Source: an uncultured Chloroflexia bacterium (GTDB taxonomy: Bacteria > Chloroflexota > Anaerolineae > JAAEKA01). Taken from it: 64,000 bases of DNA. The translations under genes were made by a program, and so were the position numbers. Each line of letters opens with the position of its first letter. The first letter of the stretch is position 1. Below, piece after piece: positions 1-19,742 of the stretch. The DNA is taken from NCBI GenBank assembly GCA_963707275.1, contig CAVPPH010000010.1:44764-108763 (forward strand), read 5' to 3'. The notes under the pieces were generated by a model that ran no database searches, was not told where the DNA came from, and worked only from the letters and a program-made list of their open reading frames with translations.

Positions 1-60
1 CCGCACTGCCCATACAGTCCGTCCCGTCCGTGGCGCTCTGACTCGGCCCATTTTACCACA

Positions 61-125
61 ATTATATCGGTTTTGTATCGGTAAAACGCTTGCTTTGCGG
101 CAAATTTGGTTGTTTACTTAAGGAA
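61..125. promoter_or_regulatory. Conserved upstream block A with direct repeat TATATCGGTTTTGTATCGGTAAAAC; ~80% identical to block at 9448-9515
   Basis: Direct sequence comparison within window; shares core TATCGGTTTTG(G)TATCG with sites at 8703, 9448, 18996. Confidence 0.5.
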
Positions 126-198
126 CTTCGGCAACAAGGCATGATTGTTGTCGTAAATACCCATCTTCAGCCGCAAGGCATCTGCAAAGGAGTATCCC

Positions 199-603
199 AT
201 GACCCGCTCGAAATCACGCAGTCTCGTCACGTTGCTCGTTCTGATCATCGCGCTGGTAGCGCTGCCAGCCGCTGCGTCAGCCGCGCCGCCGCAGCCAACC
301 CTGGGTGTGTACATCACGCCTGTCGGCAGTCCTACCTGGAGGCCGGTCGACTTCCACCTGTTCTCGGCGCCGCTCGGCACGGCAAAAAGCGGTTACGTCG
401 AGTTCGGTGAGACGACAGAGGCTCTCTTGCCGCCGCCGAACCATCGTGCCGCACCAGGATCTGGGTATCGGACCGGGCGCGCCGCACACTGGTTACGACA
501 CAGAGATGGCAGCCGGCGTGGCAGCGAATGGCTATCGCGAAACGGTGCGGTTTCGTCCGTCGGAGTTCTCGCAATGGGATGGGCATATGGACGGCGTGGA
601 TGA
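199..603 (+). CDS. Secreted hypothetical protein (signal peptide then AAPPQP motif; N-terminus resembles 19132-19521 protein); downstream frames to ~950 suggest frameshifted longer gene
   Basis: ORF with N-terminal hydrophobic signal LVTLLVLIIALVALPAAASAAPPQP; similar signal+AAPPEP start in ORF 19132-19521; overlapping ORFs in 3 frames to 952. Confidence 0.35.
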   Translation: MTRSKSRSLVTLLVLIIALVALPAAASAAPPQPTLGVYITPVGSPTWRPVDFHLFSAPLGTAKSGYVEFGETTEALLPPPNHRAAPGSGYRTGRAAHWLRHRDGSRRGSEWLSRNGAVSSVGVLAMGWAYGRRG

Positions 604-996
604 ACGTGCCAGATCCGGGAACGACCGGCTCCTCGCCGGACTTCACGTCAGGACCGATCATTCCCAACAGCCTCTTCCCAATCCACGTCACGGCTGTTTC
701 CACCCGCAACGGTGCGCCGTATTCAACGTGTTCGAGGGTGACGTGCCCGCGCTTGATAGCGATCTCGACCCACCTTTCGACGTGGATGGCCACAGCCACT
801 TCCCGTTCTTTCTGGCCGACAACTCCGACTTCGGTCCTCCTCATACGCAGGTGAATGGCAGCTATCGGTGGGACGTTACGATGCGGGACAGTGGTGGCAA
901 CGGCTGGGATATCGAGGTCGATTTCCTTATCGGGGGATGGGGCAACCAATAGGATTCACATGGTCGCTGTCAGTTGACAGCATTTTGTGAAGGCCG

Positions 997-1096
997 AGCC
1001 CCTTCGGGTTTCCGTGTGTTCACCGCGACTCGCGACCCACAACGTCGCATCCATCGCAGGCGAGTCGTGGTGAACCACGAGAAACCCGAAGGGGCT
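997..1096. repeat. Long imperfect inverted repeat (~37-nt arms) forming a stem-loop between secreted-protein ORF and SBP gene
   Basis: AGCCCCTTCGGGTTTCCGTGTGTTCACCGCGACTCGC ... GCGAGTCGTGGTGAACCACGAGAAACCCGAAGGGGCT read directly. Confidence 0.6.
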
Positions 1097-1280
1097 GGCG
1101 GATCAGGTTTTCGCAAGCAGGACTGATCGATGTCCCTCGGTGGACTGACAGTCCTGCTCTATCGTACAAGTTTCCCAACGCGTGTGCAAGTGGCTGTACA
1201 GCCAGACCGGGACTGTCAGTCCTGCCCGAAGGAGGATTGATCCGTGACATTCATTCACTCATTGATCGGAGGAGAAGGTT

Positions 1281-3183
1281 ATGTTTCACAGGAAGTGGGC
1301 CGCACTCTTTGTGGTCGTGATCCTAGCAAGCCTGGCGCTGTCTGCCTGCCAGGCGCCGGCGCCGCCGGCTCAACCGGTGGTTCAGACCGTCGTCGTCCAG
1401 CAGACGGTGGTGCAGACCGTCGTCCAGACAGTCGAGTCGACCGTAGAGACGGTCAAGGAAGTAGTGGTCACCGCGACGCCTGAGGCCGGCGAGAAGGTGA
1501 CGCTCAACATCAATCTCGGCGAGGAGCCGGCGACGCTCGATCCCTCGCTGGTCGCTGACGTCACCTCGGCCGAAGTCGTCGACAACCTGTTCCTGGGCTT
1601 GACCAACATCGGCGCCGATGGCAGCGTCGAGCCGGAGTTGGCCACCGACTGGAGCGTGTCCGACGACCGGCTGACCTACACGTTCAACATGCGCGACGAC
1701 GCGACCTGGGTGACGCTACACACCGTCGGGCGGCATGCAGGAGTTGGGACCGGTCACCGCCTATGACGTGGTCTACGGCGTGCGCCGCACCTGCGACCCG
1801 CGCACGGGATCGACCTACGCCTACATCGACTACATCATCGCCGGCTGCCAGGAGTTGAACACCACCGACCTGAACGGGATGAGTGAGGACGAAATCCAGG
1901 CGCTGGTGGACAGCGTCGGCGTCAGCGCACCCGACAGCTACACCGTCCAGTTCACCGTGGACACGCCGGCTGCCTACTTCCCCGGCATCGCCGGCATGTG
2001 GGGCAACCGGCCGCAGTACCGCGCCGCCATCGAGGCGCACGGCGAGCGCTGGACCGAGCCGGGCTTCATGGTCAGCAACGGCCCCTACACGCTGGTGAGC
2101 TGGTTCCACGGCGACAACATGGCGCTGGAGAAGAACCCCTTCTGGTACGGCTGGGACGAGGCGACCGGCAACATCGAGCGCATCGAGGTGGCCATGGTGC
2201 CGGAAGAGACGACTTCCATTCGCGCTGTACGAGACAGGTGAACTGGACACGGAGTTCGTGCCCGTCGCCGATCGGGAACGTGTCAAGAACGATCCGGTGC
2301 TGAGCCAGGAGTACAGCCGCTGCGCCGCGCGCCTGTACCACCTACGTCGGCTTCACCAACTCCAAGCCGCCCATGGACAACGTACTGGTGCGGCGGGCGC
2401 TGTCGGCCGCCATCGACCGCCAGAGCCTGATCGACAACGTCACTCAAGGACAACCGCATCCCGGCCAACGCCTTTGCGCCGGCTATGATCTTCGGCAACG
2501 CGGCCGGCGACACGGAGATCGCGCCCTGGACGTTGCCTGAAAGCATGGGCGGCTGGGGCTACGAGAAGGCGCTGGCGCAGGCCAAGGAGTGGCTGGCCGA
2601 AGCGGGCTACCCGGACGGGCAGGGCTTCCCGACGATCACCTACATGCACATCAAGAGCGAGAGCGCCAGCCAGATTGCCCAGGCCATCCAGTCGATGTGG
2701 AAGGAGGGACTCGGCATTGATATGCAGATCGAGACGCAGGAGGGCAATGTCGTGCTGAACACGCTCCAACCGACCACGCCTCTGGCAGGAGCGACCGCAC
2801 GCCTGGTTACATGGGCTGGTGCGCCGACTACGCCGACGAGAACAACTGGGTGCACGAGGTGTTCAACAGCGATGAAGGCGCCGAACTGGTTGAGCTGGGA
2901 CGAAAGCGCCAATGCGCCGCTGGGGCCCGGATGGCAAGAGCTTCAACCAGTTGACCAAGGAAGCGCAGTTGACCGAAGATCCGGCCGAACGCCAGGCGCT
3001 ATACCGCGCCGCCGAGAAGATCCTGGTCGACGACGCCGCAGGCTTTGCACCGCTCTACTACCGTCGTGAGCAACGTGAGTAACCAAGCCCTACCTACAGC
3101 GCACCTATCCCAGCATCGGCGGCAACGAGTGGTACAACTGGGTGCTGGATTGGGACGCCAAGCAGAAAGCACTTGGCAACTAG
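1281..3183 (+). pseudogene. ABC transporter substrate-binding protein, family 5 (oligopeptide/dipeptide SBP), lipoprotein signal; broken into >=4 frames
   Basis: ORFs 1281-1766, 1735-2241, 2258-2488, 2485-3069 in different frames align collinearly with intact paralog 9668-11570; TVVQ repeats, LSAC lipobox. Confidence 0.75.
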
Positions 3184-3189
3184 TGCAAG

Positions 3190-5826
3190 TCATGGGGAAG
3201 TCTCTCGATCCTGGACGGCCAGCACTCCTTCCAGGATCGAGACCGGCTTCTGTAATTACTTGGCCGAATGGCTGTCGCTGACCTCGTGTCCACGCAGCAC
3301 CGAAACTTTCCGTGTCAAGATGGGCTTGTGCTGCCTCGATCAGCCGATCGCAGTCGGCTCGGTAGATTGGCCACATGCGATAGTTCTCGTTGTCGGCGGC
3401 ATCAGCCGCGCCAAGCAGGGCAACAGCCAACTCGTACTTGCCCAAGCTCCAGAGCCAGGCTGGCCGGGCCAATGCACCAGAGACTCCATTCATCTCTGTT
3501 GACCGATATTCCTGGCAGACTGGCGCGGTACCAGGGAATTGCGCCTGCGTAATCGCCTTCGTCCTGGACTAACCTCGCTAGGCTAAGGTAGGAGCCACAA
3601 AGATTGGGGTCCTGCTCGTTCCCAAGTTTCTTGAAACGCCGTAGCATCTGGTCTAGAAACGCGTGGGCTGCAACAAAATCCTTCTGTCGAATTGTCGTGA
3701 GAAGTCAGACCAGTAAGTGTTTCCACACTAATGTAGCTTTCCCCGCTTTGCCGCTCGATTGTCATACTTTGTTCGAAGAGCGATCTTGCACGACCGAGAT
3801 CGCCATTTGCATAGGCAACTTCACCCAGCCGGTTCAGTGGCCATGTAAACCCCAGACCTTCCCGTTGCGCAATGGCAAGGTTTTCCTCGCCTAACTCCTG
3901 TGCTCGAACAAAATCACCTCTCACTAAGGCTACTTTTGTGAGGAAAAAGAGAGCCCACGAGACGCCGGAAGGCGATTTAAGTTCTCTGTAACACGCGAGA
4001 GCATTTTCAAGGTACCGATTGGCAGCGGTTGAGTCTTGCAACCACCACAACGCCATTCGTCCCAGAAGCGTCAAGGCATCAGCTTTTCCCTGGTCATATC
4101 CAAAATATGTGCTGATGGCCAGGCATTCTTCAAACATGGTTCGCGCCTGGGCAACCTCTCCCTTGTATAACATGATGATGCCTGCTTCATACAGCACCCT
4201 TGCTCGTGCAATGGTTGGATCTGAGGCACCGGGAAGCGCAAGTATCTTGTCAATCAAATGGATTGCCTCTGCGTAGGGACCTCGCTGACGATACCAACTT
4301 GCAAGATACGCGGTAATGAGCAAGGACGCTTGTCGTTCGTGTTGGATAGCCGAAGCATGGGCTGCACGCATGTTGTGGATTTCGTCATCGATCAGGCGGT
4401 TCGTGCAGTAGGCGTCTAGGATTGGGATCCATTCGATCGGCGTTCTCAACGAGTTGTAAGAAACTGCTGGCATGGCGGGCCCGCAGAGCGTCTTCCTCCC
4501 CGCTGGCAGCCAGCCTCTCCAGGCCGAACTCGCGCACCGTTTCCAGCATTGCATACCGTGTTTCACCGTACAGTCCGATCTCACGCTGCACCAAGTTTCT
4601 TTCTAGAAGCAGGGCGATGCCGCCCAGGACGGTTGCCTCCTGGTTTTCCTGGTCGTTCTTCTCCCCACACACCATCTCGGCGGCCTCCAGCGTGAAGCCG
4701 CCGGCGAAGACCGACAGACGCCGGAACAGCGTCTGCTCGGCCGGCGAGAGCAGGTCGTAGCTCCAGCCGATGGCGCCGCGCAGGGTCTTCTGGCGGGCGG
4801 AGACGTCGCGCAGGCCGTCGGTCGAGAGCAGCCACGGGCCGTGCAGGCGCTGCCAGCAGCTCCTTCGGCGGCAGCAGCTTGACCCGCGCCGCGACCAGCT
4901 CGATGGCCAGCGGCAGGCCGTCCAGCCGGCGGCACAGCTCGGCCACCGCGGCGGCGTTGCCGTCGTCGACGGCGAAGTCGGGCAGCACCGCCTCGGCGCG
5001 GTCGGCGAAGAGTGCTACCGACGGGTAGCGCAGCATGTCGCTGGCCGTGACCACGCTCGCGCCGGCCATCTCGGCCGGCAGCGCCAGCGGCAGGACGTGG
5101 ATCTGCCGTTCGCCGCGCACTCGCAGCGGCTGGCGGCTGGTGACCAGCACGTGCAGCCACGGACAGCGTCGCAGCAGGTCGTCCACCAGCGGCGCGGCGG
5201 CCACGATCTGCTCGAAGTTGTCCAGCACCAGGAGCAGGTGCTTCTCCTCCAGATAGGCGCGCAGTTGCAGTTCCGGCGGGTTGGGACCGCTCATCTGCAA
5301 GCCCAGCGCCTGCGCGATCGCCGCGGCCACCTGGTCGGGGTCGGTGACCGGCGCCAGGCGCACGAAGAAGACGCCGTCGTCGAACTGCTCCAGCACATCC
5401 TCGGCCACGGCCAGGGAGAGCCGCGTCTTGCCGACGCCGGGCGGACCGACGAGGGTGACCAGCCGCGCGCCGTCGCTCAACAGCCGCCGTCGTACCACGG
5501 TGATGTCGTGGGCGCGGCCGATGAGCGGCGTGAGCTGGGCGGGGAGGTTGTTGGGGCGCTGTGGACGCAGCAGGCGCGCGGTGGTCGGTGAAGTCCTCGA
5601 CCGTGCCGCGCGCCAGGGCGATCAGGTCGGGCAGGTCGGCGTCGTCTGCGCCGAGCGCCTGCGCCAGGGACGTGACCAGCGGCGCGGACGGTTGCAGGTC
5701 GCCGCTTTCGATTTTGCGCAGCGTGACCTCGGCGCAGCCCGCCTGCTGCGCCAGCGCTTTCTGTGTCAGCCCCAGCGCCTTGCGCCGTTGTTTGAGCCAG
5801 TGGCCGAAGGTTGTTGTCTTAAGCAT
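3190..5826 (-). pseudogene. STAND-type regulator copy 1: HTH_XRE + NB-ARC (P-loop GPPGVGKT) + TPR; multiple frameshifts
   Basis: ORFs 4603-5826, 4581-5498, 4385-4675, 3583-4584, 3402-3647 (minus) are collinear with intact paralog 16180-18789. Confidence 0.75.
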
Positions 5827-5834
5827 GCCGTGCC

Positions 5835-8504
5835 TCAGGTGCTGCTTGTTCCTCGACGCGCAGCACTTCCTCCAGGATCGAGACCGCCTCCTCTGATCAC
5901 CTGTTCGAATGCGAAGTTCGCGCCCTTCCGTCCACGCAGCATCAAAGCGCTCGACACCCAGGTGGGTGCGGGCGACTGTCGACGAGGCGATTGTAGTCGT
6001 TTCGCTGGAAGGGCATCAGAGCGATAATCTGGCATGTCCGCAGCCTCGATCATGCCTAACAGCTTGGCGGCCAACTCGTGTCGCTCCAAGGCTTCGGCCA
6101 GAGCAGCCAGACCAAGGCCCCAGTCACACCAATCTGTTCTGTCATACCTCACTCCAGGCAGGCCTACTCGTACAACCGACTGCGCCAGCGTAGTCACCTT
6201 CTGACCTGCGCCAGTATCCCCAGAAGCAGGTAGCAATCACAGAGTTGGCGTATTGCCAATAGTAGTTGTTTCCCTTGAGCATGCTATGACCTCATCCAGA
6301 AAGGCATGGGCAGCCGGGAAGTCCCCTGGCGCGTCGCAATCTCTGCCAAATCAACAAGGGTGCTCATGTCAGTGCCTCATCCTTCCGTGTTGCCGCTCAA
6401 TCGACAATGCCTGCTCGTAATAGCGATCGTGCCTCATCAAGGTCACCTTCAGCGTACGCGATGGCCCCCAGATCTTGTAGCGGCCATGGAAACCTGAAGC
6501 CTGCCTGCTGTGCGATGGTGAGCGCTTTCCTCGCTCAGCGCTCGTGCCGCGCGAAAGGCTTCCCGTATGACATGCGATTTCGGCCAGGAATGCACAGAGA
6601 GATAAGGAAATACCGTCGGGGTCGTCCAGCTTTCTGATAGATTGAGAGCGAGCTTGTTCAAGATATTGGACAGCTATACTCTGATCATATCGGCCGTACC
6701 AAGTGAATTTGTCCCAGGCCATAGCAGGGCATCAGCCTCCCCCTTTTCGTATTCCAGTTCCTGGCTGAGAACAAGGCTCTCTTCAGCATAGGCCTGAGCT
6801 TATCGCATTCATTGCTACACGAGCATGAGGATTGCCTGCCTCACGCAGAGCCTTCGCTCGGGGAATCGTATGGGCTGAGGCGTCAGGCAAGGCGAGAACT
6901 TCTTCTATCAAACGCATGCCTTCCGCATATGGACCTCGTTGGCCAAACCAGCGCAAGATAGGGCTGCGGTCAGCAACAACGCGGCCTGAACGTCAGTTCC
7001 ATCGCCCAGGCCAGTGCAGCGCGCACGTTGTGGATTTCGTCGTCGACGAAGTGGCGTACCTGCCAGAAGCCGGAGTCTAGGTCCAGAATGTTCGGCTTTC
7101 TCGACAAGTCGGAGAAGCAACTTACATGCCGTGCGCGTAACACCTCTTCTTGGCTGGCTCGAATTCATCCGTTCCAACCCGTACTCGCGCACCGTCTCGA
7201 GCATGACGTAGCGCGGATCACCGTACATGCCAGTTTCACGGTGCAACAGGCTCTTGTCCAGCAACGAACCGATGCCGTCGAGCACCTGGGCGGCGAGAGG
7301 GGGAGCGGGAGCGGGGAGAGAGGGTTTCTCCGCACAGCAGTTCGGCCGCTTCCAGCGTGAAGCCGCCGACAAAGACGGACAGGTACGTGAACAGCGCCTG
7401 CTCGACCGGCGAGAGCAGGTCATAGCTCCAGCCGATGGCGCCGCGCAGGGTCTTCTGGCGGGCGGAGACGTCGCGCAGGCCGTCGGTCGAGAGCAGCCAC
7501 GGGCCGTGCAGGCGCGCCAGCAACTCGTTCGGCGGCAGCAGCTTGACCCGCGCCGCGACCAGCTCGATGGCCAGCGGCAGGCCGTCCAGCCGGCGGCACA
7601 GCTCGGCCACGGCGGCGGCGTTGCCGTCGTCGACGGCGAAGTCGGGCAGCACCGCCTCGGCGCGGTCGGCGAAGAGGGCCACCGACGGGTAGCGCAGCAT
7701 GTCCTGGGCGGTCACCGCGCTCGGCGGCCGACGCAGCCAGCCGGCAGCGCCAGCGGCTGGACGTGGATCTGCCGTTCGCCGCGCACCCGCAGCGGCTGGC
7801 GGCTGGTCACCAGCACGTGCAGCCACGGACAGCGGCGCAGCAGGTCGTCCACCAGCGGCGCGGCGGCCACGATCTGCTCGAAGTTGTCCAGCACCAGGAG
7901 CAGGTGCTTCTCCTCCAGCCAGGCGCGGCAGTTGCAGCTCCGGCGGGTTGGGGCCGCCCATCTGCAAGCCCAGCGTCTGCGCGATGGCCGCTGCCACTTG
8001 GGCGGGGTCGCTGACCGGCGCCAGGCGCACGAAGAAGACGCCGTCGTCGAACTGTTCCAGCACGTCCTCGGCCACGGCCAGGGAAAGCCGCGTCTTGCCG
8101 ACGCCGGGCGGGCCGAGGAGGGTGACCAGCCGCGCGCCGTCGCTCAACAGCCGCCGTCGCACCACGGTGATGTCGTGGGCGCGGCCGATGAGCGGCGTGA
8201 GTTGGGCGGGCAGGTTGTTGGGGCGCTGTGGACGGAGGAGGCGCGCGGTGGTGGTGAAGTCCTCGACCGTGCCGCGCGCCAGGGCGATCAGGTCGGGTAG
8301 GTCGGCGTCGTCTGCGCCGAGCGCCTGCGCCAGGGACGTGACCAGCGGCGCGGAGGGCTGCAGGTCGCCGCTTTCGATCTTGCGCAGCGTGACCTCGGCG
8401 CAGCCTGCCTGCTGCGCCAGCGCTTTCTGTGTCAGCCCCAGCGCCTTGCGCCGCTGTTTGAGCCAATGACCGAAGTCGCCTGTCCTGGCAACCCTGTCTG
8501 CCAT
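5835..8504 (-). pseudogene. STAND-type regulator copy 2 (tandem to copy 1): HTH_XRE + NB-ARC + degraded TPR; many frameshifts/stops
   Basis: ORFs 7236-8504, 7712-7894, 6908-7423, 6369-6722, 5835-6236 (minus) match successive segments of 16180-18789 protein. Confidence 0.7.
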
Positions 8505-8694
8505 TGTTTCCTCTTTGTCGCCATCAAATCCAAAAGTGTGACCGAATTCACCGTTTTTGTGTGACCCGCTTCATAGCGGGATTTGCAAACATGCGCGATG
8601 ATGTCCTCAACCAACTGGTTCGATCCATTTGGGGCCTACATCTCAATCCCTGTGCTCACATCGTATCTATGTGTCGCCCGGACGGTCGCGGTAT

Positions 8695-8760
8695 TGTATC
8701 ACATTGTTATCGGTATTGGTATCGCAAATCGATTCCAAGAAGGGCACAAATCCGCTTCAA
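8695..8760. promoter_or_regulatory. Conserved divergent-promoter block C (ATTGTATCACATTGTTATCGGTATTGGTATCGCAAAT...GCACAAATCC...TTCAATAATGACAGG)
   Basis: ~85% identical to block 18985-19080; both lie ~200 bp upstream (divergent) of an HTH-NB-ARC-TPR regulator start. Confidence 0.55.
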
Positions 8761-8766
8761 TAATGA

Positions 8767-9008
8767 CAGGTGGCGACAGGGCCGATATTGTCGACGACGC
8801 GGTCCTCCGGGTCTACCCTGACTGGTCCCAGGTCAGGGTAGACGATCTGGAATACCTGGTGACCGATGGGACATACGTTGTCAGCGACGGCTCTGCCCTG
8901 CGCCGGGCGCACTTGTCCGTGATGTATTGGCCGGTCATGCAGCCCCGGCGGGCGGTCTGGCTGGAGGCTCGTCCCCGCAGGACGGTCGATCGCATCAGGT
9001 TGCGATGA
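8767..9008 (+). pseudogene. 5'-truncated remnant of cadherin-like small secreted protein (C-terminal half only)
   Basis: DDAVLRVYPDWSQV...YLVTDGTYVVSDGSA...SVMYWPV aligns with C-terminal halves of paralogs 9023-9415, 20157-20534; no signal peptide, no stop at paralog position. Confidence 0.4.
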
Positions 9009-9022
9009 AAGGAGAATGTGTG

Positions 9023-9415
9023 ATGAACATCCTGTTGATAGTTGTGATCCTGGTTGTCAGCCTGATCCCGCTGCCGGCCAGAGAACGGTATCATGTCCCG
9101 GTTGCCCGGGCCGATGATCGGACGCTGGTGTATCAAATGCCATACGTTGACATTGACGTCGTCAACAACGACTTCGGCCCGGGCCGGAACAGTTTGCACG
9201 TGGTCGCGGTCACGGTCGCTCAAGGCCAGGGGGTGGAGATCATTGACGGGTCAACGGTGCGGGTGTACGTCGATTGGGCCAGCTATTTGGCCGACGCCAC
9301 TGCCAACGATGCTGTGGCGGGCAGAGTAGCCCACGGAACCTACATCGTCAGCAACGGCTACGCCCAGTCGCGGGCGCAGTGGGCGGTGTGGTACGTGCCG
9401 GATATGAAGGTCTGA
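9023..9415 (+). CDS. Small secreted/membrane-anchored single cadherin-like (VCBS/Cadherin_5-like) domain protein, paralog P1
   Basis: N-terminal TM/signal, then VDIDVVNNDFGPG..VVAVTV...YVDW...GTYIVSNG...WAVWYVP; RBS AAAGGAGA 7 nt upstream of ATG 9023. Confidence 0.7.
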   Translation: MNILLIVVILVVSLIPLPARERYHVPVARADDRTLVYQMPYVDIDVVNNDFGPGRNSLHVVAVTVAQGQGVEIIDGSTVRVYVDWASYLADATANDAVAGRVAHGTYIVSNGYAQSRAQWAVWYVPDMKV

Positions 9416-9447
9416 ACCAATCGATACAGCGCGGTTCTCTTGCCACA

Positions 9448-9515
9448 TTTATATCGCTTTTGTATCGGTCAAACCCTTGCGGCGCGGCTGCTTGCGTTGT
9501 TTACTGGAGGAACAG
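9448..9515. promoter_or_regulatory. Conserved upstream block B (TTATATCGCTTTTGTATCGGTCAAAC...TTGTTTACTGGAGGAAC) upstream of SBP2
   Basis: ~80% identity to 61-125. Confidence 0.5.
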
Positions 9516-9667
9516 TGATACCTTGCAGGGTTTACCTGCCGTTGCGAGCGGCGCCGGGCGAGCTGGGTTTGGAGGGTTTTCGTGCCCACTCAGGCTGCTG
9601 AGGATTAAGAGTCCTGCTTGTGAGGTTTCGCTTGATTGACATCGTTCGTATTCCGGAGGTAGAGGAA

Positions 9668-11570
9668 ATGGATGCCATGAAACGTGTCGCACTATTCTTG
9701 TTCATAATTGGGGCTTGCCTATTGCTGGCCGCCTGCCAGGTGCCGCCGGCGGTGCAGATTGAGCAGGTTGCGCCAACTGTTGGCGTTCAGCCGGCGACCG
9801 CTCCGGTCGTCGATCAACCGGCCGCGCCGATTAGCGAGACGGCGTCGGTGAACACTGTTGGCGCTGCGTCGCCTGAGAGCGATCAGACCGTAACGCTCAA
9901 CATGAACCTGCCCTACGGCGATCCGATGAGCCTGGACCCGTCGCTGGCAGCCGATGGGGTCTCAGTTAACCTCGTCGACAACCTCTTTGTGGGGTTGACC
10001 GACATCCGCGCCGATGGCAGCGTTGCGCCGGCGCTGGCTACCGACTGGAGCGTCTCCGACGACCGGCTGACTTACACCTTCAACCTGCGCGACGACGCCA
10101 CCTGGGTGCGCTACACGGCCGCCGCCGGCGTGCAGCAGTTGGGACCGGTCACGGCTTACGACGTCGTCTACGGCGTCAAGCGCACCTGCGATCCGCGCAC
10201 GGCGGCGACGTCAGTCTATCTGGATTACGTCATCGCTGGTTGCCACAAACTGAACGCTGCCGACCCGGCAAGGCTGAGCGAACAAGAGGTTCAGGCGCTG
10301 ATAGACAACGTGGGCGTCAGCGCGCCCGACAGCACCACGGTACAGTTCACGCTGAATACGCAGGCTGTCTATTTTCCGCAGATTGCCGGACTGTGGGTCA
10401 ACCGGCCGCAAAACCGGACCGCGATCGAAGAGAATGGCAACCACTGGACGAATCCGGGCCAGATCGTGACCAACGGCCCCTACCTGTTGGCGCGCTGGTT
10501 TCATTACGATGACATGACGCTGGAGAAGAACCCGTTTTGGTATGGCTGGGACGAGGCGGCTGGCAACATCGAACGCATCGAACTGCGCATGACGACCGAT
10601 CAATCGTTGGCTTTCAAGATGTACAAGTTCGGCACATTGGACACGGACAGCGTGCCCGCGGCTGAAATCGACCACGTCAAGAGCGACCCGGTGCTGAGCC
10701 AGGAGTACGTCCATGCGCCAGAGGCGTGTACCTCCATCGTTGGCTTCACAAATTCCAAGCCGCCGCTGGACAACGTGCTGGTGCGCAAAGCACTGGCGGC
10801 TGCCATCGACCGCCAGAGCCTGATCGACAGCGTGCTCAAGGGTAACGAAATTCCTGCCAACACGTTCGCTCCGGGCATGGTTTTCGGCAGCCCGGCCGGC
10901 GACCCCGATATCGCGCCCTGGGCGCTGCCTGAAAGCATGGGCGGCTGGGGCTACGACAAGTCGCTGGCGCAGGCCAGGGAATGGCTGGCTGAGGCGGGTT
11001 ATCCCGACGGCCAGGGCTTCCCGGCGATCACTTTCATGCATTCCCAATATGTGACGTCCGATCAGGTGATGAGAGCCATCCAGTCCATGTGGGCGGACGG
11101 CCTGGGGATCGAGGTTGCGATCGAGTCCACCGAACACGAAGTGTTCTACGACACGATCGATGCCAATACGCCGTTGGACGAACGGCCAAACGCCTGGACG
11201 CTGGTCTGGTGCGCTGACTACGCCGACGAAAACAACTGGGTGTACGAGGTGTTCAACAGCGACGACGGCACGACCTGGGCGAGTTGGGACGCGACTGCCA
11301 ACGCGCCGCTGGGTCCGCAAGGCATGAACTTCAACCAGTTGACCAAGGATGCGCAGCAAGTGGAGGATCCGACGCAGCGCCTGGCGCTCTACCGCGCCGC
11401 CGAGAAGATTTCTGGTAGACGATGCCACGGCCATCGCGCCGTTGTACTACAGCGTTCGCAATGAGGTGGCCAAGCCCTACTTGCAGCGTACCTACCGCGA
11501 CATCGGCGGCGAACAGTGGTCGACCTGGGTGCTGGACTGGGCCGCCAAGCAAGCCGCGCTTGATCGCTAG
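9668..11570 (+). CDS. ABC transporter substrate-binding protein family 5 (oligopeptide SBP), lipoprotein; one frameshift near 11400
   Basis: 614-aa ORF 9620-11464 with LLLAAC lipobox and SBP_bac_5-like core; C-terminal 70 aa continue in ORF 11349-11570 (KPYLQRTYRDIGGEQWSTWVLDW), matching end of paralog 1281-3183. Confidence 0.8.
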
Positions 11571-11841
11571 GTTGTTCCATCGTGCAGTGACGTGTCATGC
11601 TGAACGGGTTGAACAGCCAACGAACGTGGATGTCCCACCGCAAGTGAAGCATCTCCATTCACGTGAGGCGCGAGACGCTTCACTGGTGGTTCAGGCAGGT
11701 GTTGGTCGTGCTTCAGACCCGTTCAGCGTGACAGCGGCAGCGGGGTTGCCCTGCAAACTTGTGAGGTCATGTGTATCGTCACAGGTTGATCCGGTAGCGA
11801 CCACACAGCTTTCGCTCTTGTAGCAACAGGAAATCGCAGTC

Positions 11842-12858: not shown

Positions 12859-12944
12859 CGACAGGCCAGGGCTTATCATCAGTCGCCAACTTCGGCTGTG
12901 AGCACGACGATCAACGTGTTCGCCCTTCAAGAGGAGATTTCACT

Positions 12945-15266
12945 ATGAAGCGTTCAGCAGTGTTGGTATTGTTCGCCCTCGTCATCGTGGGGAGTATCGG
13001 ACTGTGGAACGGTCATCCGGTCAGCGCCGATGGCCACACGCAGGGTCTCTGGATCTTCTCCGACGAGATCAGTTCATTGTCGGCGCGTGATACGTTGGTC
13101 CAGCGCAGCGCGGCCAGCGGCGTGACCGACCTCTACCTCAGCGTCTATCATTCTCCCGCCAACAGCGACGGACGCCTGATGTACGAAGATGGTGACCTTG
13201 CCGATCTGATCGACAAGGCACATCTCAGCGGCCTGGCTGCGTGGGCGGCGTACGGCGACACCGTTTGGCCGGCCCTCGGATGTGATCCGGGCGCGTGGCC
13301 CTTGCAGCGCATGGCCGAGGTCGTCGCCTACAACACCGCCAATCCCGCTGCGCCTTTCGACGGCGTCATCCTCGATGTGGAGCCGCCGGAGCCGCAAAGT
13401 GCGGCTGATTTCCAAAACCTGCTGGCGCTCTACCAATGCACCCGCGACTTTCTGCCCGGCAACTTGAAGCTGGCGGTTGCGATCCGATTCTACTGGGATA
13501 CACCCGTGGCATATCCGGCCGGCGGACCGGTCAAGCCGGTCCACCAGCACATCGTCGATCTCGATCTCGACCAGATCGTGGTGATGGGCTACCGCGACTT
13601 CGCCGGCACGGCTAACTGCAACGATGGCGACGGTCTGATCTGCCTCGACCAGGACGAGATCGCCTATGCAGACGCGGCCCTCAAGCCTGACCTGATACTG
13701 GTTGGTCTTGAGACATCGAACTGCTCGCCCGGCTGCGGCCCTGAGAAGGTAACCTTCTTCGAGGAAGGGCAGGCGGTGCTAAGCAGCGAGGCGCAGGCTG
13801 TCGCGGACCACTTTGCCGCGGCCCCCAGCTTCGGCGGCTTCGCCATCCACCGCTACAACGCCTCCTATCTGTCTGGTCAGCCCGATTGGCCGGCCGAGAA
13901 CCCCCCGCCGCCACAGGGCGTGGTGGTCAGGCTGCTGGACAGCCAGGGCAACGGTCTGGCCGGCGGCACGGTGCAATACTACGCCGGCGGGTGGCAGGCC
14001 ATTCCGGGCACCACCGACGCCAGCGGGACCCTGGTTACCGATATTCCCGTGTCCAGCGGCAACCTGAGCTTCCGCATGACCTACGCCAACGCGTCGCAGC
14101 AACTGTCTCAGAACGTGACCGGCAACCCCACTGTCACGTTCCAGACGACCCACGTCACTGTCGAACTGCGAGACAGCTTCGGCAACCTGATCCCGGACGA
14201 GGCGGGAACCGGCACGGTGCAGTACTACGCGGGCGGCTGGCGTGACTTCGGTGTGACCGTGGGTGGGCAGACCAGCAAGGAGTTGCTGCCGCTGAGCTAC
14301 AGCTTCAGCATGAGCTACGCCTTTGGCCGCCAGCAACTGAACGGTCAGAATGTCGCTGCCAACCCGACCGTCACGTTCCAGACGACCCACGTCACCGTGG
14401 AACTGCGCGACAGCAGCGGCAATCTGATCCCCGACGGTGCGGGAACCGGCGCCGTGCAATACTACGCGGGCGGCTGGCGTGACTTCGGTGTGACCGCCGG
14501 TGGGCAGGCCAGCAGGGAACTGCTGCCGCTGACCTACAGTTTCGCCATGACCTACGCCTTCGGCCGCCAGCAGTTGAACGGCCAAGACGTCGGTGCTAAT
14601 CCCACCGTCACGTTCCAGACGAAACAGGTCACCGTGGAACTGCGCGACAGCGGCGGCAACCTGATCCCCGACGCGGCTGGAACCGGGACCGTGCAGTACT
14701 ACGCGGGCGGCTGGCGCGACTTCGGTGTGACGACCGGAGGGCAGGCCAGCAGGGAACTGCTGCCGCTGACCTACAGTTTCGCCATGACCTACGCCTTCGG
14801 CCGCCAGCAGTTGAACGGCCAGGATGTCGCCGCCAACCCGACCGTCACCTTCCAGACGACCCGCGTCACCGTGGAACTGCGCGACAGCAGCGGCAACCCG
14901 ATCTCCAACGAGGCAGGAACCGGGATGGTGCAGTACTACGCCGGCGGCTGGCGTGACTTTGGCGTAACCGCCGGTGGACAGGCAAGCAGGGAACTGCTGC
15001 CGCTGACCTACAGTTTCGCCATGACCTACGCCTTCGGCCGCCAGCAGCTGAACGGCCAGGACGTCAACGCGAACCCGACCGTCACGTTCCAGACTGGCCA
15101 CGTTCACTCAGACAGCGGGACAGCAGTCCAGTACTACGCCGGTGGCTGGCGCAGCTTCGTGCAGGACATGCAGCTTCTGCCCGCTTCGTACACGTTTCAC
15201 TTCAACGACGGGAGCCCGAACCAGGCATATCCAGTCGTGGGCGGCATGATGAACGCGATCCATTGA
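12945..15266 (+). CDS. Secreted 773-aa protein: signal peptide, putative TIM-barrel glycoside-hydrolase-like N-domain (FDGVILDVE motif), then ~5 tandem 79-aa repeats
   Basis: Signal MKRSAVLVLFALVIVGS; repeats NPTVTFQTTHVTVELRDSSGNLIPD..GTG.VQYYAGGWRDFGVTAGGQASRELLPLTYSFAMTYAFGRQQLNGQDV. Confidence 0.65.
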   Translation: MKRSAVLVLFALVIVGSIGLWNGHPVSADGHTQGLWIFSDEISSLSARDTLVQRSAASGVTDLYLSVYHSPANSDGRLMYEDGDLADLIDKAHLSGLAAWAAYGDTVWPALGCDPGAWPLQRMAEVVAYNTANPAAPFDGVILDVEPPEPQSAADFQNLLALYQCTRDFLPGNLKLAVAIRFYWDTPVAYPAGGPVKPVHQHIVDLDLDQIVVMGYRDFAGTANCNDGDGLICLDQDEIAYADAALKPDLILVGLETSNCSPGCGPEKVTFFEEGQAVLSSEAQAVADHFAAAPSFGGFAIHRYNASYLSGQPDWPAENPPPPQGVVVRLLDSQGNGLAGGTVQYYAGGWQAIPGTTDASGTLVTDIPVSSGNLSFRMTYANASQQLSQNVTGNPTVTFQTTHVTVELRDSFGNLIPDEAGTGTVQYYAGGWRDFGVTVGGQTSKELLPLSYSFSMSYAFGRQQLNGQNVAANPTVTFQTTHVTVELRDSSGNLIPDGAGTGAVQYYAGGWRDFGVTAGGQASRELLPLTYSFAMTYAFGRQQLNGQDVGANPTVTFQTKQVTVELRDSGGNLIPDAAGTGTVQYYAGGWRDFGVTTGGQASRELLPLTYSFAMTYAFGRQQLNGQDVAANPTVTFQTTRVTVELRDSSGNPISNEAGTGMVQYYAGGWRDFGVTAGGQASRELLPLTYSFAMTYAFGRQQLNGQDVNANPTVTFQTGHVHSDSGTAVQYYAGGWRSFVQDMQLLPASYTFHFNDGSPNQAYPVVGGMMNAIH
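14113..15110 (+). repeat. Near-identical 237-bp tandem DNA repeats (x ~4.3) inside CDS 12945-15266
   Basis: Period 237 bp at 14113/14359/14596/14833/15070; copies 2-4 differ by only a few nt. Confidence 0.85.
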
Positions 15267-15380
15267 CAGCAGACGCGAAACGCTTCACTGGCGGTTGGCC
15301 CAGGCCTGGTTGGGTGCTCGATCCGCTCAAGGTGACAACCATTCGGATACTTACGCCCACATGTACTAGGACCGCGTTCT

Positions 15381-16169
15381 ATGCCCGACTTTCGACATTG
15401 GCTACTGACCGCAGATTTGCACGTTGCAACGCTAACACTAAATCGGCCCGAGTCGAAGAACAGCCTGACGCCTGAGGTTTTGAGCGAGTTGCGCGCGATC
15501 ACAGCCGAGCTGGGCGCCAATGTCGAGGTCTGGGCTGTCGTCCTGCAAGGGAACGGAGACCACTTCTCAGTGGGCGTGGATACCGATCTCATTCGCAGCA
15601 TGCTCGATCAGCCGGCCCAGATCGTGCGCGAACAGCTTCGGGAGATGCAAGTAGCGCTGGATGAATTCGAAGCCATCCCCAAGCCCGTACTCGCCAGGCT
15701 GCATGGGTTTTGTATCGGCGGCGGTCTCCTGCTGGCATTGTGTTGCGATTTTCGCATCGCCAGCCAGCGTACCATCTTCGCCCTGCCCGAGGTCAAGCTG
15801 GGCATCCCAATTCTGATGGGCACGCACCGCATCACGCGGGTCACAGGAATTGCTACAGCAAAGGAACTGGTTTTGTTCGGCGAGCGTTTCAACGCCGCAA
15901 CGGCGCATAGATTGGGGCTGTTGCATCGCGTCGTGGCGCCCGATCAACTTGATTCCACCGTGATGACGCTGGCGGACCGCTTTCGCAGACTGCCACCGCG
16001 GACAATCAGTGTCACGAAACGCATCTTCACCGAAGGCTACGGCCTACCTCTGCGCGATAGTCAGGATCTGGAGCTTGAGGCGCTGGCGGAACTGCTTGAC
16101 AGCCACGATCCGCGCGAGGCAATCGAGAGCTTCTTGGTTGGACGTGACCCACATTACACGGGGACATAG
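15381..16169 (+). CDS. Enoyl-CoA hydratase/isomerase (crotonase) family protein
   Basis: LNRPESKNSL...FCIGGGLLLALCCDFRIA...ALPEVKLGI crotonase-fold motifs. Confidence 0.8.
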   Translation: MPDFRHWLLTADLHVATLTLNRPESKNSLTPEVLSELRAITAELGANVEVWAVVLQGNGDHFSVGVDTDLIRSMLDQPAQIVREQLREMQVALDEFEAIPKPVLARLHGFCIGGGLLLALCCDFRIASQRTIFALPEVKLGIPILMGTHRITRVTGIATAKELVLFGERFNAATAHRLGLLHRVVAPDQLDSTVMTLADRFRRLPPRTISVTKRIFTEGYGLPLRDSQDLELEALAELLDSHDPREAIESFLVGRDPHYTGT

Positions 16170-16179
16170 TCTGCAAGAA

Positions 16180-18789
16180 CTAACCAAGTTGCAACGCCTG
16201 CAGGATCGAGACTGCCTCCTCAACCACCTGCTCGAATGGGTGTCGCTGACCTTGCGCCCACGCAGCGTCGAAACTCGCTGTGTTGAGGTGAACTCTTGCA
16301 GTCTCGAAGAGTCGATTGAAGTCGGTACGATAGATCGGCCACATGCGATAGTTCTCGTTGTCTGCGGCATCGGTTGCGCCAAGTAGCACGACAGCCAACT
16401 CGTGCTGGCCAAACGCCAGCGCCAGACCGGCCAGGCCAAGGCTCCAGGAACTCCATTCATCTCGGTCGACTGGGATTCCTGGCAGACTGGCGCGGTACCA
16501 GTGGATGGCGCTAGCGTAGTCGCCTTCTTCCTGGACCAACGTTGCCAGGTACAGGTAACAGCCGCACAGGTTGGGATCCTGGTCGTTGTCGTATCTCTTT
16601 ACGAGTTGTAGCCACTGGTTCATGAATATGTGGGCAGTATCGAAATCCTTCTGACGAATCGCCGTGAGAGAAAGGCCGATAAGGGTTTCCTGGCTAATGT
16701 CGTTTTTCCCGGTTTGACGCTCTACTTTCATACTTTGCTCAAAGCGCGATCTCGCAAGTGCCAAATCGCCATTCGCGTAAGCTATCTCGCCCAGCCTGTT
16801 CAAAGGTAACGAAAACCCCAGACCTTCCCGTTGAGAGATGGCAAGGCTTTCCTCGCCTAACTCTTGAGCTCGAAGGAAGTCACCTCTCAACAGAGAGACT
16901 TTTGTGAGATACATGAGGGCCATTGACATGCCCCCAGGGGAGCGAAGTTCTGTGTAACAGTCGAGCGCCTTTTCCAGGTACTGGATGGCAGCGGCCGAGT
17001 CTTGCAACCACCACAATGACATTCGTCCCAGGAGGATCAATGCGTCGGCTTCCCCTTTGAGATAACCCAGCTTCGTGCTGATGGTCAGGCTCTCCTCGAC
17101 CATTGTCTTTGCACGAGTGGTCTCTCCGCTGTACAACAGAACAATGCCAGCTTCATACAGGACCCTTGCTCGCGGAATGGTTGGATTTGAGGCCCCGGGA
17201 AGTGCAAGTACCTCGTCGATCAAACGGATTGCTTCCACGTAGGGACCTCTCTGATAAAACCAGAACGCCAGATACGCAGTCAACAGTAAGGATATCTGTT
17301 CGTCGTGCTGCACGGACCAGGCAAGAGCAGAGCGCAAATTGTAGAGTTCATCATCGATCAAACGGTTTTGTAGCGTTCGTCTGGGGTTGCCATCCGCTGC
17401 ATTGCCATTCTCCATGATCGTCAGGAAGCAGCCAGCATGCCGCGCCCGCATGATCTCCATTTCGCCGCTGGCAGCTAATCTGTCGAGGCCGAACTCGCGC
17501 ACCGTCTCAAGCATGGCGTAGCGCGTTTCACCGTATAGCCCGGTCTCACGCTGCACGAGGTTCCTTTCCAGAAGCACTGCGACGCCGTCCAGGACGGCTG
17601 CCGCCTGCTCTTCAGCGTTGCCATCTTCCCAGCACACCATCTCAGCCGCCTGCAGTGTGAAGCCGCCTGCGAATACCGACAGACGCCGGAACAGCGTCTG
17701 CTCGGCTGGCGGGAGCAGGTCGTAGCTCCAGCCGATGGCGCCGCGCAGGGTCTTCTGGCGGGCGGACACATCGCGCAGGCCGTCGGTGGAGAGCAGCCAC
17801 GGGCCGTGCAGGCGTGCCAACAATTCGTTGGGTGGAAGGACCTTGACCCGCGCCGCGACCAGTTCGATGGCCAGCGGCAGGCCGTCCAGCCGGCGGCACA
17901 GTTCGGCCACAGCGGCAGCGTTGCCGTCGTCGACAGCGAAGTCGGGCAGCACCGCTTCGGCGCGTTCGGCAAAGAGTTCTACCGACGGATAGCGCAGCAT
18001 GTCGGCGGCTTTGACCGCGCTCGCTCCGGTCATCTCGGCCGGCAACGCTAACGGCAGCACGTGGATCTGGCGCTCGCCGCGCACCCGCAGCGGCTGGCGG
18101 CTGGTGACCAGGACGTGCAGCCATGGACAGCGGCGCAGCAAGTCGTCCACCAGCGGCGCGGCGGCCACGATCTGCTCGAAGTTATCCAGCACCAGGAGCA
18201 GGTGTTTCTCCTCAAGATACGCGCGCAGTTGTAGCTCCGGTGGGTTGGGACCGCTCATTTGCAAGCCCAGCGCCTGGGCGATGGCCGCCGCCACCTGATG
18301 GGGGTCGATGACCGGCGCCAGGCGGACGAAGAAGGCGCCGTCGTCGAACTGTTCCAGCACGTCCTCGGCCACGGCCAGGGAGAGCCGCGTCTTGCCGACG
18401 CCGGGCGGACCAACCAGCGTAACCAGCCGAGCGCCGTCGTCGACCAGCCGTTTACGCACAGCGGTGATGTCGCGCTCGCGGCCGATGAGTGGTGTGAGCT
18501 GGGCGGGGAGGTTGTTAGGATGCTGGGGACGCAGCAGGCGCGCCTTGACCGTGAAGTCGTCTTCGAGACCGCGCGCCAGGGAAACCAGGCCCGGCAGGTC
18601 GGCGTCGTCCACGCCGAGAGCTGTGGCAAGAGACGCAACCAGCGGCGCGGACGGCTGCAGGTTGCCGGCCTCGATCTTGCGCAGCGTCACCTCGGCGCAG
18701 CCCGCCTGCTGTGCCAACACCTTCTGTGTCAGCCCAAGCGCCTTGCGCCGTTGCTTGAGCCACTGACCGAAGTTACCTGTCTGTTGCAT
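16180..18789 (-). CDS. STAND-type regulator copy 3, intact: HTH_XRE N-domain + NB-ARC ATPase + C-terminal TPR
   Basis: 869-aa uninterrupted ORF; GHWLKQRRKALGLTQ HTH; Walker A GPPGVGKT; hhhhD Walker B LLVLDNFEQ; multiple TPR-like repeats. Confidence 0.85.
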   Translation of the reverse strand: MQQTGNFGQWLKQRRKALGLTQKVLAQQAGCAEVTLRKIEAGNLQPSAPLVASLATALGVDDADLPGLVSLARGLEDDFTVKARLLRPQHPNNLPAQLTPLIGRERDITAVRKRLVDDGARLVTLVGPPGVGKTRLSLAVAEDVLEQFDDGAFFVRLAPVIDPHQVAAAIAQALGLQMSGPNPPELQLRAYLEEKHLLLVLDNFEQIVAAAPLVDDLLRRCPWLHVLVTSRQPLRVRGERQIHVLPLALPAEMTGASAVKAADMLRYPSVELFAERAEAVLPDFAVDDGNAAAVAELCRRLDGLPLAIELVAARVKVLPPNELLARLHGPWLLSTDGLRDVSARQKTLRGAIGWSYDLLPPAEQTLFRRLSVFAGGFTLQAAEMVCWEDGNAEEQAAAVLDGVAVLLERNLVQRETGLYGETRYAMLETVREFGLDRLAASGEMEIMRARHAGCFLTIMENGNAADGNPRRTLQNRLIDDELYNLRSALAWSVQHDEQISLLLTAYLAFWFYQRGPYVEAIRLIDEVLALPGASNPTIPRARVLYEAGIVLLYSGETTRAKTMVEESLTISTKLGYLKGEADALILLGRMSLWWLQDSAAAIQYLEKALDCYTELRSPGGMSMALMYLTKVSLLRGDFLRAQELGEESLAISQREGLGFSLPLNRLGEIAYANGDLALARSRFEQSMKVERQTGKNDISQETLIGLSLTAIRQKDFDTAHIFMNQWLQLVKRYDNDQDPNLCGCYLYLATLVQEEGDYASAIHWYRASLPGIPVDRDEWSSWSLGLAGLALAFGQHELAVVLLGATDAADNENYRMWPIYRTDFNRLFETARVHLNTASFDAAWAQGQRHPFEQVVEEAVSILQALQLG

Positions 18790-18984
18790 TTTCTCAAGCT
18801 ACAGCCTTCTCAGCATCAGTTTGCCAGAAAAGTGTGACGGGTTTCACACTTTTTTTGTGAACTACTTCATAGCGAGAATTGCACAATCCTGTTATGATAC
18901 AACCATATCCCAAAAGCCGCTTCAAGTTTCGGGGTTAACCCGTTATCCGCCTGGTTGAGTAGGGACTGCGAGTCGCCGCAAGGG

Positions 18985-19080
18985 TCGCGCATATTGTATC
19001 ACATTGCTATCGGTTTTGGTATCGCAATTTGGTTCTTAACTGCGCACAAATCCTGTTTAATAACAGGTGTTCGGACAAAG
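18985..19080. promoter_or_regulatory. Conserved divergent-promoter block D (ATTGTATCACATTGCTATCGGTTTTGGTATCGCAATT...GCACAAATCC...TTTAATAACAGG)
   Basis: Homologous to 8695-8760; sits between regulator 3 start (18789) and secreted gene 19132. Confidence 0.55.
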
Positions 19081-19521: not shown

Positions 19522-19742
19522 GGAGCGTAGACGACTCTCTGCGAAAACCGGCGAGCATTCGCTACTTCTGCCGAGACGACGCGTTTCGAATCACCGCTGC
19601 TGACTTGCTGCTTCTCTCGTCCTTGCCGTTTTCCCTAGCAGGGGGCAGGGGGACCGGCGAGGCGCTGAGAGCAGGAAAAACGAGACGAGGAGCCGCCCAA
19701 AGCGGGCGGCTCCTCCCACAAACTACCTGGAGGAACCGTATC

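Follow-up and report, generated by a model that had tools for sequence, protein, structure and literature searches.

MalT of Escherichia coli, a STAND protein of the LAL type, is an activator that oligomerizes in response to its signal plus ATP and that is served by several repeated boxes, which lie upstream of and abut a weak -35 element. GutR of Bacillus subtilis is composed of a helix-turn-helix (HTH), a nucleotide-binding domain and TPRs, and activates the adjacent operon after binding of inducer and then of ATP; its site reportedly precedes the gutB promoter and is an imperfect inverted repeat instead of a phased array of direct repeats. The RNPP regulators of the Firmicutes (PlcR, NprR) combine an XRE HTH with TPRs, have no NTPase domain and bind palindromic boxes as dimers; their regulons include secreted proteins, and they depend on SBP_bac_5/OppA-type proteins. 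Here, four arrays of direct repeats are described in a stretch of 64,000 nucleotides (64 kb, the window) from contig CAVPPH010000010.1 of an uncultured Chloroflexia bacterium, together with the neighbouring genes for regulators of the XRE-HTH/NB-ARC/TPR type. On comparative grounds, the arrays are probably activator sites bound by these XRE-STAND regulators in an oligomerized form.

MalT and GutR are both switched on by an inducer plus ATP (PMC10936776). AfsR protomers were described to sit side by side on 11-bp direct repeats at the -35 region, and target sites of SARPs consist of direct repeats 11 or 22 bp apart, with 8 bp between the 3' repeat and the -10 element (PMC10936776). The window regulator resembles AfsR and the other large SARPs of Streptomyces (SARP, NOD and TPR domains) in its STAND layout, i.e. 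an N-terminal DNA-binding domain, a P-loop NOD and a TPR sensor. However, its DNA-binding domain is an XRE (Cro/CI-type) HTH and not an OmpR-type winged helix plus BTAD, and its phylum is Chloroflexota and not Actinomycetota. Its N-terminus gave no match with Trans_reg_C or BTAD (Pfam), and the AfsR model aligned with its NOD region only, at a sub-threshold score (E = 4.8e-15, 54.6 bits versus a cutoff of 1430). MalT differs in having a C-terminal LuxR-type HTH, a different sensor domain and an unrelated box sequence; the HTH of the window regulator is N-terminal and XRE-type, and no GerE match was obtained. Because the SARP and LuxR DNA-binding domains are absent, the system is a member of neither the SARP nor the MalT family. 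The domain order of GutR, going by its description, is that of the window regulator, whereas GutR controls sugar-alcohol catabolism instead of secreted proteins. With the RNPP regulators the window regulator has the XRE HTH and the TPR sensor in common, and an SBP_bac_5 gene follows one of the arrays (block 3). However, its HTH and its TPRs are separated by an NB-ARC domain, and the repeats of the sites are direct; with this NTPase domain it is not an RNPP protein. Nor did it fall in the anti-phage STAND (Avs-like) class, for which PADLOC gave only weak matches (mostly generic HTH and TPR; TRIP13), the effector being a DNA-binding HTH. The best reading, by analogy, is that the sites would work like those of MalT or AfsR through a different DNA-binding domain.

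Arrays of phased direct repeats in the window

A first reading of the sequence (the original prediction) had proposed four intergenic blocks, each with two TATCG half-sites about 10 bp apart. Exact searches of the window located the blocks at the places given: TATCG-N6-TATCG matched only at 65-80 and 9452-9467 (0.09 matches expected) and TATCG-N7-TATCG only at 8708-8724 and 19008-19024 (0.03 expected). All four pairs (65/76, 8708/8720, 9452/9463 and 19008/19020) are on the plus strand and, according to the maps of open reading frames (ORFs), intergenic. When two mismatches were allowed, the window yielded one extra weak match, within an ORF, and no credible additional site. The pairs were thus confirmed, but their spacing from start to start is 11 bp for type A (blocks 1 and 3) and 12 bp for type B (blocks 2 and 4), and instead of two half-sites the blocks contain arrays of 3-6 direct repeats phased at 11-12 bp.

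A third unit was found 11 bp upstream of each pair. In the type A blocks this gives three units: block 1 (54-80, plus strand) consists of TACCA at 54 and TATCG at 65 and 76, with steps of 11 and 11 bp, and block 3 (9441-9467, plus strand) of TGCCA at 9441 and TATCG at 9452 and 9463. The type B blocks are longer, with up to five or six units. Block 2 (8673-8736, plus strand) starts with GTCGC at 8673 and 8685, continues with TATCA at 8697 and TATCG at 8708 and 8720, and ends with a degenerate ATTCC at 8732. Block 4 (18972-19036, plus strand) has GTCGC at 18972 and 18984, TATCA at 18997, TATCG at 19008 and 19020, and a degenerate GTTCT at 19032. The core that is common to the blocks, CACAWT-NN-TATCG-N-T-N-TTG-(N)-TATCG, is longer than first seen.

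Each array is followed on the plus strand by promoter-like elements. Behind block 1 (90-118) these were read from the sequence as TTGCTT (90-95), a 17-bp spacer and TTTACT (113-118); behind block 3 (9477-9505) alignment gave TTGCGG (9477-9482), again a 17-bp spacer, and TTTACT (9500-9505). In block 2 (8745-8761) a conserved CACAAATCC at 8745-8753 precedes a -10-like TTCAAT at 8756-8761, and in block 4 (19045-19061) the same CACAAATCC at 19045-19053 precedes TTTAAT at 19056-19061. The extended architecture that had been noticed in two of the blocks proved by alignment to be common to blocks 2 and 4, with blocks 1 and 3 as a second pair. CACAAATCC falls in the presumed -35/-10 spacer of type B sites only and is recognizable in most type B sites of relatives; it could be the site of a second factor or part of an unusual promoter.

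Other identities of the blocks were considered. An ECF-type promoter was rejected, as the GGAAC of blocks 1 and 3 is not conserved in orthologous type A sites. A likeness to DnaA boxes was rejected on inspection: TTGTATCACA and TTATCCACA differ by an indel, and the repeats are phased and direct. Conserved blocks of ~70 nt upstream of genes with long 5' regions might also be structured RNA leaders or small RNAs and not DNA sites. No Rfam match was found at the blocks, either at the gathering thresholds or at E <= 1, their folding energy was no better than that of shuffled sequences (z -0.71 to +0.45), and the conserved columns are phased direct repeats without pairing partners. An RNA element, dropped for want of an Rfam match and of excess folding stability, is extremely improbable.

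The region is rich in paralogous segments: the three regulator copies are 72-97% identical over repeat families D2-D6, and two copies of a solute-binding protein (SBP) gene are 75-83% identical. The blocks could therefore be functionless leftovers of a recent segmental duplication of regulator cassettes. However, blocks 1 and 3 share ~70 bp (CCACAWTTATATCGSTTTTGTATCGGT ... CTTGC ... GTTGTTTACT..AGGAAC) between flanks that are unrelated on both sides and in front of different genes. In the DNA leading from the regulator starts to blocks 2 and 4, the alignment of the two copies breaks down save for two islands, which are the block itself and a pair of CRP-like boxes. The genes behind the different copies (a secreted 134-aa protein, SBP_bac_5, Big_9 proteins and an Ig-like protein of 773 to 1007 aa) are not the same, and in relatives the array heads whichever gene is first after rearrangement. 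An example is L001:6076, which precedes an Ig-like gene (L-numbers denote loci of relatives and Lnnn:position a site within that locus). Because the flanks are unrelated and the downstream genes differ, the conservation of the blocks is not explained by duplication of entire segments with identical flanks, which had been named beforehand as an outcome that would overturn the original prediction. Furthermore, the repeats are invariant columns over 21 sites from at least eight genomes or metagenomes, and the same repeats are present in L101, which has no other sizeable similarity beyond the regulator gene. The duplication explanation is thus largely refuted and very unlikely to hold.

Geometry of the arrays in relatives

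A strict 19-base pattern was scanned against one genome per species (185,579 species) and matched 16 stretches. Five of these are in metagenome-assembled genomes (MAGs) of Chloroflexota (Anaerolineales HK-STAS-CHLO-17, Caldilineales ABC2.10 and Caldilineales DTUCFX11), all intergenic within clusters like that of the window. The other 11, in unrelated taxa, look like chance matches, seem to fall in coding DNA and include several pairs from related genomes. The scan thus matched this lineage plus a few chance-like stretches, and the similar frequency in random or coding DNA that would have spoken against a specific motif was not seen. The Chloroflexota loci are syntenic with the window, with ~74-88% nucleotide identity in the main collinear segments, and hold further sites that the strict pattern had missed. 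In all, 17 sites in relatives (Caldilineales and Anaerolineae MAGs and Ca. Amarolinea) keep the same geometry, and most of them adjoin a regulator gene and point away from it.

These 17 sites and the four of the window were combined into a set of 21, for which multiple alignments of 12 type B and 9 type A sites were made. The consensus of the unit is (A/T)T(T)(G)TATC(G/A)(C/G)(A/T), in short form wTTgTATCG. Across the set the first and second repeats (r1 and r2) are 11 bp apart, and the third (r3) follows r2 at exactly 11 bp in type A or 12 bp in type B. From the start of r3 to a TTTAMT-like hexamer (TTTACT, TTAACT or TTTAAT) the distance is 36-37 bp in 17 of the 21 sites. Type A sites carry TTGnnn, a 17-bp spacer and TTTACT; this layout of block 1 recurs in L001:6076, L011, L018 and L097, the last of which has a perfect TTGACA-17-TTTACT. 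In type B sites the place of TTGnnn is held by a degenerate fourth TATC-like unit, which is TATCA in L104 and L015, TGTCA in L019 and L097, and ATTCC in the window. Most of the invariant columns belong to the repeat units; in type B the AT of the -10-like hexamer is invariant as well. The flanking sequences could not be aligned.

The distance between the array and the start codon of the regulator gene, by comparison, varies from 14 to ~1460 bp. The fixed distance to the hexamer together with this variable distance ties the array to the rightward promoters and not to the regulator gene. On the whole, we regard it as likely that the blocks are cis-regulatory arrays in which the direct repeats are helically phased, and that each is situated upstream of and reaches into the weak -35 of a rightward promoter. 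If the TTTAMT hexamer, to which the promoter was assigned from the sequence, is the -10 element, the strong units would be centred near -66, -55 and -44, i.e. in an activator position beside a weak -35, and the arrays would serve activation rather than repression.

Repeated boxes upstream of a weak -35 resemble those of MalT. The afs box of AfsR likewise consists of direct repeats with a period of one turn (11 bp) at or beside the -35 of promoters with a poor core (PMC10936776). In contrast to AfsR, the strong repeats are here upstream of the -35 (predicted centres ~-66, -55 and -44) and not within -40 to -19. From the SARP site rule the periodicity is present (11-12 bp), but the 8 bp to the -10 element are not, as the hexamer follows the start of the last strong repeat by 36-37 bp and that of the degenerate repeat by 24 bp.

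Many XRE-family proteins are repressors, and the XRE-STAND protein might bind the repeats mainly as a repressor or autoregulator of the divergent regulator gene instead of activating the rightward genes. Only 14-55 bp separate the array from the regulator start codon in L101, L003/L017 and L097, so that the array must overlap the regulator's own promoter or 5' leader. This explanation leaves aside that 36-37 bp to the rightward TTTAMT are kept while the distance to the regulator start drifts. Moreover, blocks 1 and 3 and several sites of relatives precede their targets without a regulator directly opposite, and sites upstream of a weak -35 are typical of activators. A mainly repressing role therefore seems unlikely. 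The operator for the XRE HTH of the adjacent regulator that had been predicted is thus retained as a putative binding site on comparative evidence, but not as a classical repressor operator, since its position is fixed relative to plus-strand promoters and variable relative to the regulator start. Autoregulation might occur at those sites where the array directly adjoins the regulator gene. On the minus strand the reverse complement of the repeats gives TACAAT/TATAAT, with no acceptable -35 and no call by the promoter scan; it is possible that this strand forms part of the regulator's own promoter.

The putative binding protein

Three paralogous regulator genes are present on the minus strand of the window. 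By their Pfam domains (XRE HTH, NB-ARC/AAA_16 and TPR) they encode STAND NTPases with an N-terminal DNA-binding domain. The intact copy (16180-18789, 869 aa) has its XRE HTH at residues 7-65, the NB-ARC/AAA_16 P-loop NTPase at ~100-232 and the TPR sensor at ~540-835, and its translation contains the Walker motifs GPPGVGKT and LLLVLDNFE; a look-up of the exact protein found none on record. In regulator 2 (7236-8504) the HTH is intact and the NTPase region out of frame, with remnants to ~5830. Regulator 1 (3583-5826), directly downstream of it in tandem, is broken by a frameshift into 4603-5826 and 3583-4584 and lacks a repeat block. All three belong to the XRE class (HTH_31 51.7-55 bits, cutoff 27; HTH_3 40-43 bits, cutoff 23), and the intact copy alone to the STAND class (NB-ARC 36.6 bits, cutoff 23.5; AAA_16 32.9, cutoff 32.6; TPR_12 82.6). 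Two of the blocks had been placed in the divergent region upstream of the regulator starts 8504 and 18789. These are blocks 2 and 4, which start 193 and 208 bp, respectively, from the two start codons, and both genes encode an XRE-type HTH (HTH_31, E = 1e-14 and 1e-13). Orthologues of block 1 are L001:14 and L104:4951, the latter ~100 bp from a regulator start codon, and by synteny with L104 another such regulator probably lies just beyond the left edge of the window, beside block 1.

Frameshifted genes are frequent in the left part of the cluster (199-952; 1281-3069, an SBP_bac_5 copy in three pieces; 3583-5826; 5830-8504), and the homologous regulators of many MAGs are likewise split into 2-4 ORFs. 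Such splitting suggests either a family of paralogues in decay or indel errors that arose in long-read assembly.

Tandem CRP/FNR-type boxes of the form TGTGA-N6-TCAYA were observed solely in the intervals that separate blocks 2 and 4 from the regulator start codons (8537-8575 and 18833-18871; four matches versus 0.05 expected), one of them a perfect palindrome, TGTGACGGGTTTCACA. A CRP-family gene is located 2.5 kb to the right (21567-22253, plus strand) and is 75% identical to one beside the regulators in L099; such a gene adjoins the regulators in L098, L099, L003 and L017. The boxes, with this gene nearby, suggest that the regulator genes are under cyclic-nucleotide or redox control, or that the divergent promoters are co-activated.

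A regulator with the helix AEVTLRKIE adjoins a site, on the opposite strand, in L001 (6076), L002, L003/L017, L015, L019-L021, L097 and L104. The site of L018 is ~1460 bp from the regulator start codon, and no regulator is visible in two short fragments (L011, and L001:14 at the locus edge). Further sites came from contigs retrieved by way of protein homologues. In L097, from Ca. Amarolinea dominans, whose regulator is 70% identical, a site of type B and another of type A are present, and the 20.8-kb cluster of L104 has at least four regulator genes, several of them split, and five sites. A scan of metagenomes with the regulator N-terminus yielded 80 loci. The motif was present in all five with an HTH-bearing regulator of 74-85% identity (L017-L021), in each case upstream of the regulator start and on the other strand. 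It was absent from the other metagenome loci (~75 STAND homologues), where two chance-like matches occurred in ~480 kb against ~4 estimated by chance. As most of these homologues have cyclase- or kinase-like N-termini instead of an HTH, they serve as negative controls. Judged by sequence, the closest NB-ARC/TPR homologues outside the HTH clade (L023-L096) have adenylate/guanylate cyclase-like or Ser/Thr kinase-like N-termini, so that the same sensor-switch module appears to be wired to different outputs.

Apart from the regulator, the window cluster has no sizeable gene in common with L101, L105, L022 and L102. In L101, on a contig of 47% GC with otherwise unrelated genes, the regulator is 47% identical and has the recognition helix AEVTLRRIE. 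The repeats TTTGTATCGGTATTTGTATCGC, i.e. TTTGTATCGG-TATTTGTATCGC-TTTTCGTATTAC, begin there 14 bp from its start codon in divergent orientation, which is the strongest single observation for the regulator link. Comparable phased repeats, oriented likewise, accompany more distant HTH-STAND genes: ATTGCATCGGTGATGCATCGG in L022 (a variant of it in L027), TTGTACGGTTTTTTGTATAG in L105, TGTATGAGTTTTTGTAC in L102 and GGCTGTATCCCT / GGCTGTCGCCCT / GGCTGTATCCCT in L089. The pattern TGYAY-N6-8-TGYAY, which was defined after seeing the data, occurs in five of ten upstream regions of such distant genes, always divergently. Its density, for this post hoc pattern, is 5 in 2.9 kb (1.7/kb) versus 15 in 423 kb of control loci (0.035/kb).

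The co-occurrence of motif and regulator family that had been anticipated was borne out: the motif was found only in the window and in loci that have AEVTLR(K/R)IE regulators or are syntenic fragments of the cluster, including the 47%-identical L101. The most likely binding protein, as judged from gene context, is the divergent XRE-HTH/NB-ARC/TPR regulator next to blocks 2 and 4. In L100 a single unit was found near the regulator gene. Clearly, the regulators need not sit beside their sites.

Several points weigh against the regulator as activator. Its link with the sites is one of association, and because much of the co-occurrence is in related, syntenic genomes the independent observations are few (the close clade and L101, and more weakly L022/L027, L102 and L105). 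Phased repeats were not found within 4-5 kb of the regulator in L098 and L099, which have the same recognition helix, or in L106 with a related helix. Two of the three regulator copies in the window are disrupted, and only that at 16180-18789 is intact. A strict sigma-70 scan called no promoter at the blocks because the second position of the -10-like hexamer is T rather than A, and the transcription starts, hence the positions -66, -55 and -44, are predicted ones. Finally, XRE-type HTH proteins usually bind inverted repeats, classically as dimers, and tandem head-to-tail binding by such an HTH is a prediction. As to L106, whose regulator (at 5001) is a distant member of the family, two long perfect palindromes, not direct repeats, are present upstream of the gene at about 4905-4965 and 4835-4880: CTATAGTTTGTTTTGGGCGC..GCGCCCAAAAAAAACTATAG and GGTGTTTTTTATTGCCGGCCGGCAATAAAAAACACC.

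The preference of XRE HTH domains for inverted repeats would also fit arrays that are real activator sites of another protein, encoded elsewhere, which binds 10-11-bp direct repeats (OmpR/PhoB-type, or SARP-like with winged helix plus BTAD), the XRE-STAND genes being co-regulated neighbours only. In line with this, and likewise to the detriment of the regulator, a 315-aa SARP-like gene (winged helix plus BTAD) is located downstream of a type A site in L011 (2056-1112, the first gene) and L018 (1260-325), with a fragment in L019 (2564-2247). SARP sites, moreover, are direct repeats spaced 11 or 22 bp (PMC10936776). However, no SARP-like gene was found in the 64-kb window or in L001-L003, L097, L101 and L104, whereas the regulator is the gene that the window cluster shares with L101, L105, L022 and L102. 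The SARP 8-bp rule is also broken, as the last strong repeat ends ~25 bp and the degenerate one ~13 bp before the -10-like hexamer. Another binder is therefore considered rather unlikely. The SARP-like gene was rejected as a common neighbour, being present only in L011, L018 and L019; its position behind a type A array hints at a regulatory cascade in those genomes.

With the XRE-STAND regulator as the binder, the TPR domain would sense a signal and ATP would bind to NB-ARC, upon which the protein would oligomerize. The N-terminal XRE HTHs would then be presented head to tail in the same orientation, one per helical turn, and would occupy the phased repeats cooperatively. The promoter-proximal subunit would recruit RNA polymerase to a promoter with a poor -35.

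A more far-reaching and quite doubtful proposal is that the cluster as a whole is an NLR-like (STAND) counterpart of Gram-positive RNPP peptide signalling. The small secreted proteins behind the arrays might be processed and re-imported via the co-regulated SBP_bac_5 protein, and their products might be sensed by the TPR domain of the XRE-STAND regulator. A head-to-tail oligomer of 5-6 subunits might then assemble on the 5-6 phased repeats and activate the same promoters, which would create a positive-feedback cell-cell switch in filamentous Chloroflexota. These might also be the first Cro/CI-type HTHs to read tandem direct repeats through NOD-driven oligomerization.

The family of XRE-HTH/NB-ARC/TPR proteins in Chloroflexota and other phyla is very large; 2,499 proteins at E <= 1e-10 were counted among 8,000 candidates examined. 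A literature search gave no described target site or operator for XRE-STAND regulators. The present analysis provides a well-supported comparative prediction of a transcription-factor site, with a concrete putative operator (wTTgTATCG every 11-12 bp, abutting the -35 region). The predicted regulon is small, with secreted proteins, Ig/cadherin-like surface proteins and a peptide-binding protein, and the lineage includes Ca. Amarolinea, which is covered in the literature on activated-sludge Chloroflexi. The twist is a modest one, namely that Cro/CI-type HTHs would read tandem direct repeats. Should binding be confirmed, the principle of MalT and AfsR, an oligomerizing STAND activator on helically phased repeats, would extend to a third, unrelated class of DNA-binding domain.

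Genes behind the arrays and further features

Block 1 is followed by a gene for a secreted protein with a signal peptide (199-952, plus strand), which had no Pfam match and is split by a frameshift (199-603 and 305-952). Its orthologue in L001 is a single ORF, listed with 271 aa (~250 aa from the Met equivalent to 199). A terminator-like stem (966-981) precedes a long hairpin (997-1096), which lies between this first target gene and the SBP fragments and gave sub-threshold Rfam matches to miRNA precursors (36.6 bits).

Fragments of Big_9-like proteins (8763-9415, plus strand) lie behind block 2. Block 3 precedes a gene for a lipoprotein-type solute-binding protein of family 5 (SBP_bac_5, peptide/oligopeptide type; 9620-11464, plus strand; Pfam E = 1e-67), of which the likely start codon is ATG 9669. 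It is followed by a GNAT gene and then by a gene for an Ig-like repeat protein. Behind block 4 (19132-20123, plus strand) are the genes for a 129-aa secreted protein (19132-19521) and a Big_9/cadherin-like protein (19500-20123); the same pair also follows type B sites in L003, L020 and L104.

In the intergenic stretch 58853-59128, which had no Rfam match at the gathering threshold, three tandem 92-bp units (92% matches) were observed, each with two hairpin-forming inverted repeats. The ORF for the Ig-like/invasin-like surface protein (12945-15266) contains 4-5 tandem coding repeats of 237 bp at 14124-15134, which are 77-87% identical. In the window this gene follows the GNAT gene without an array, whereas in L001, L097 and L104 it has a type A array of its own.

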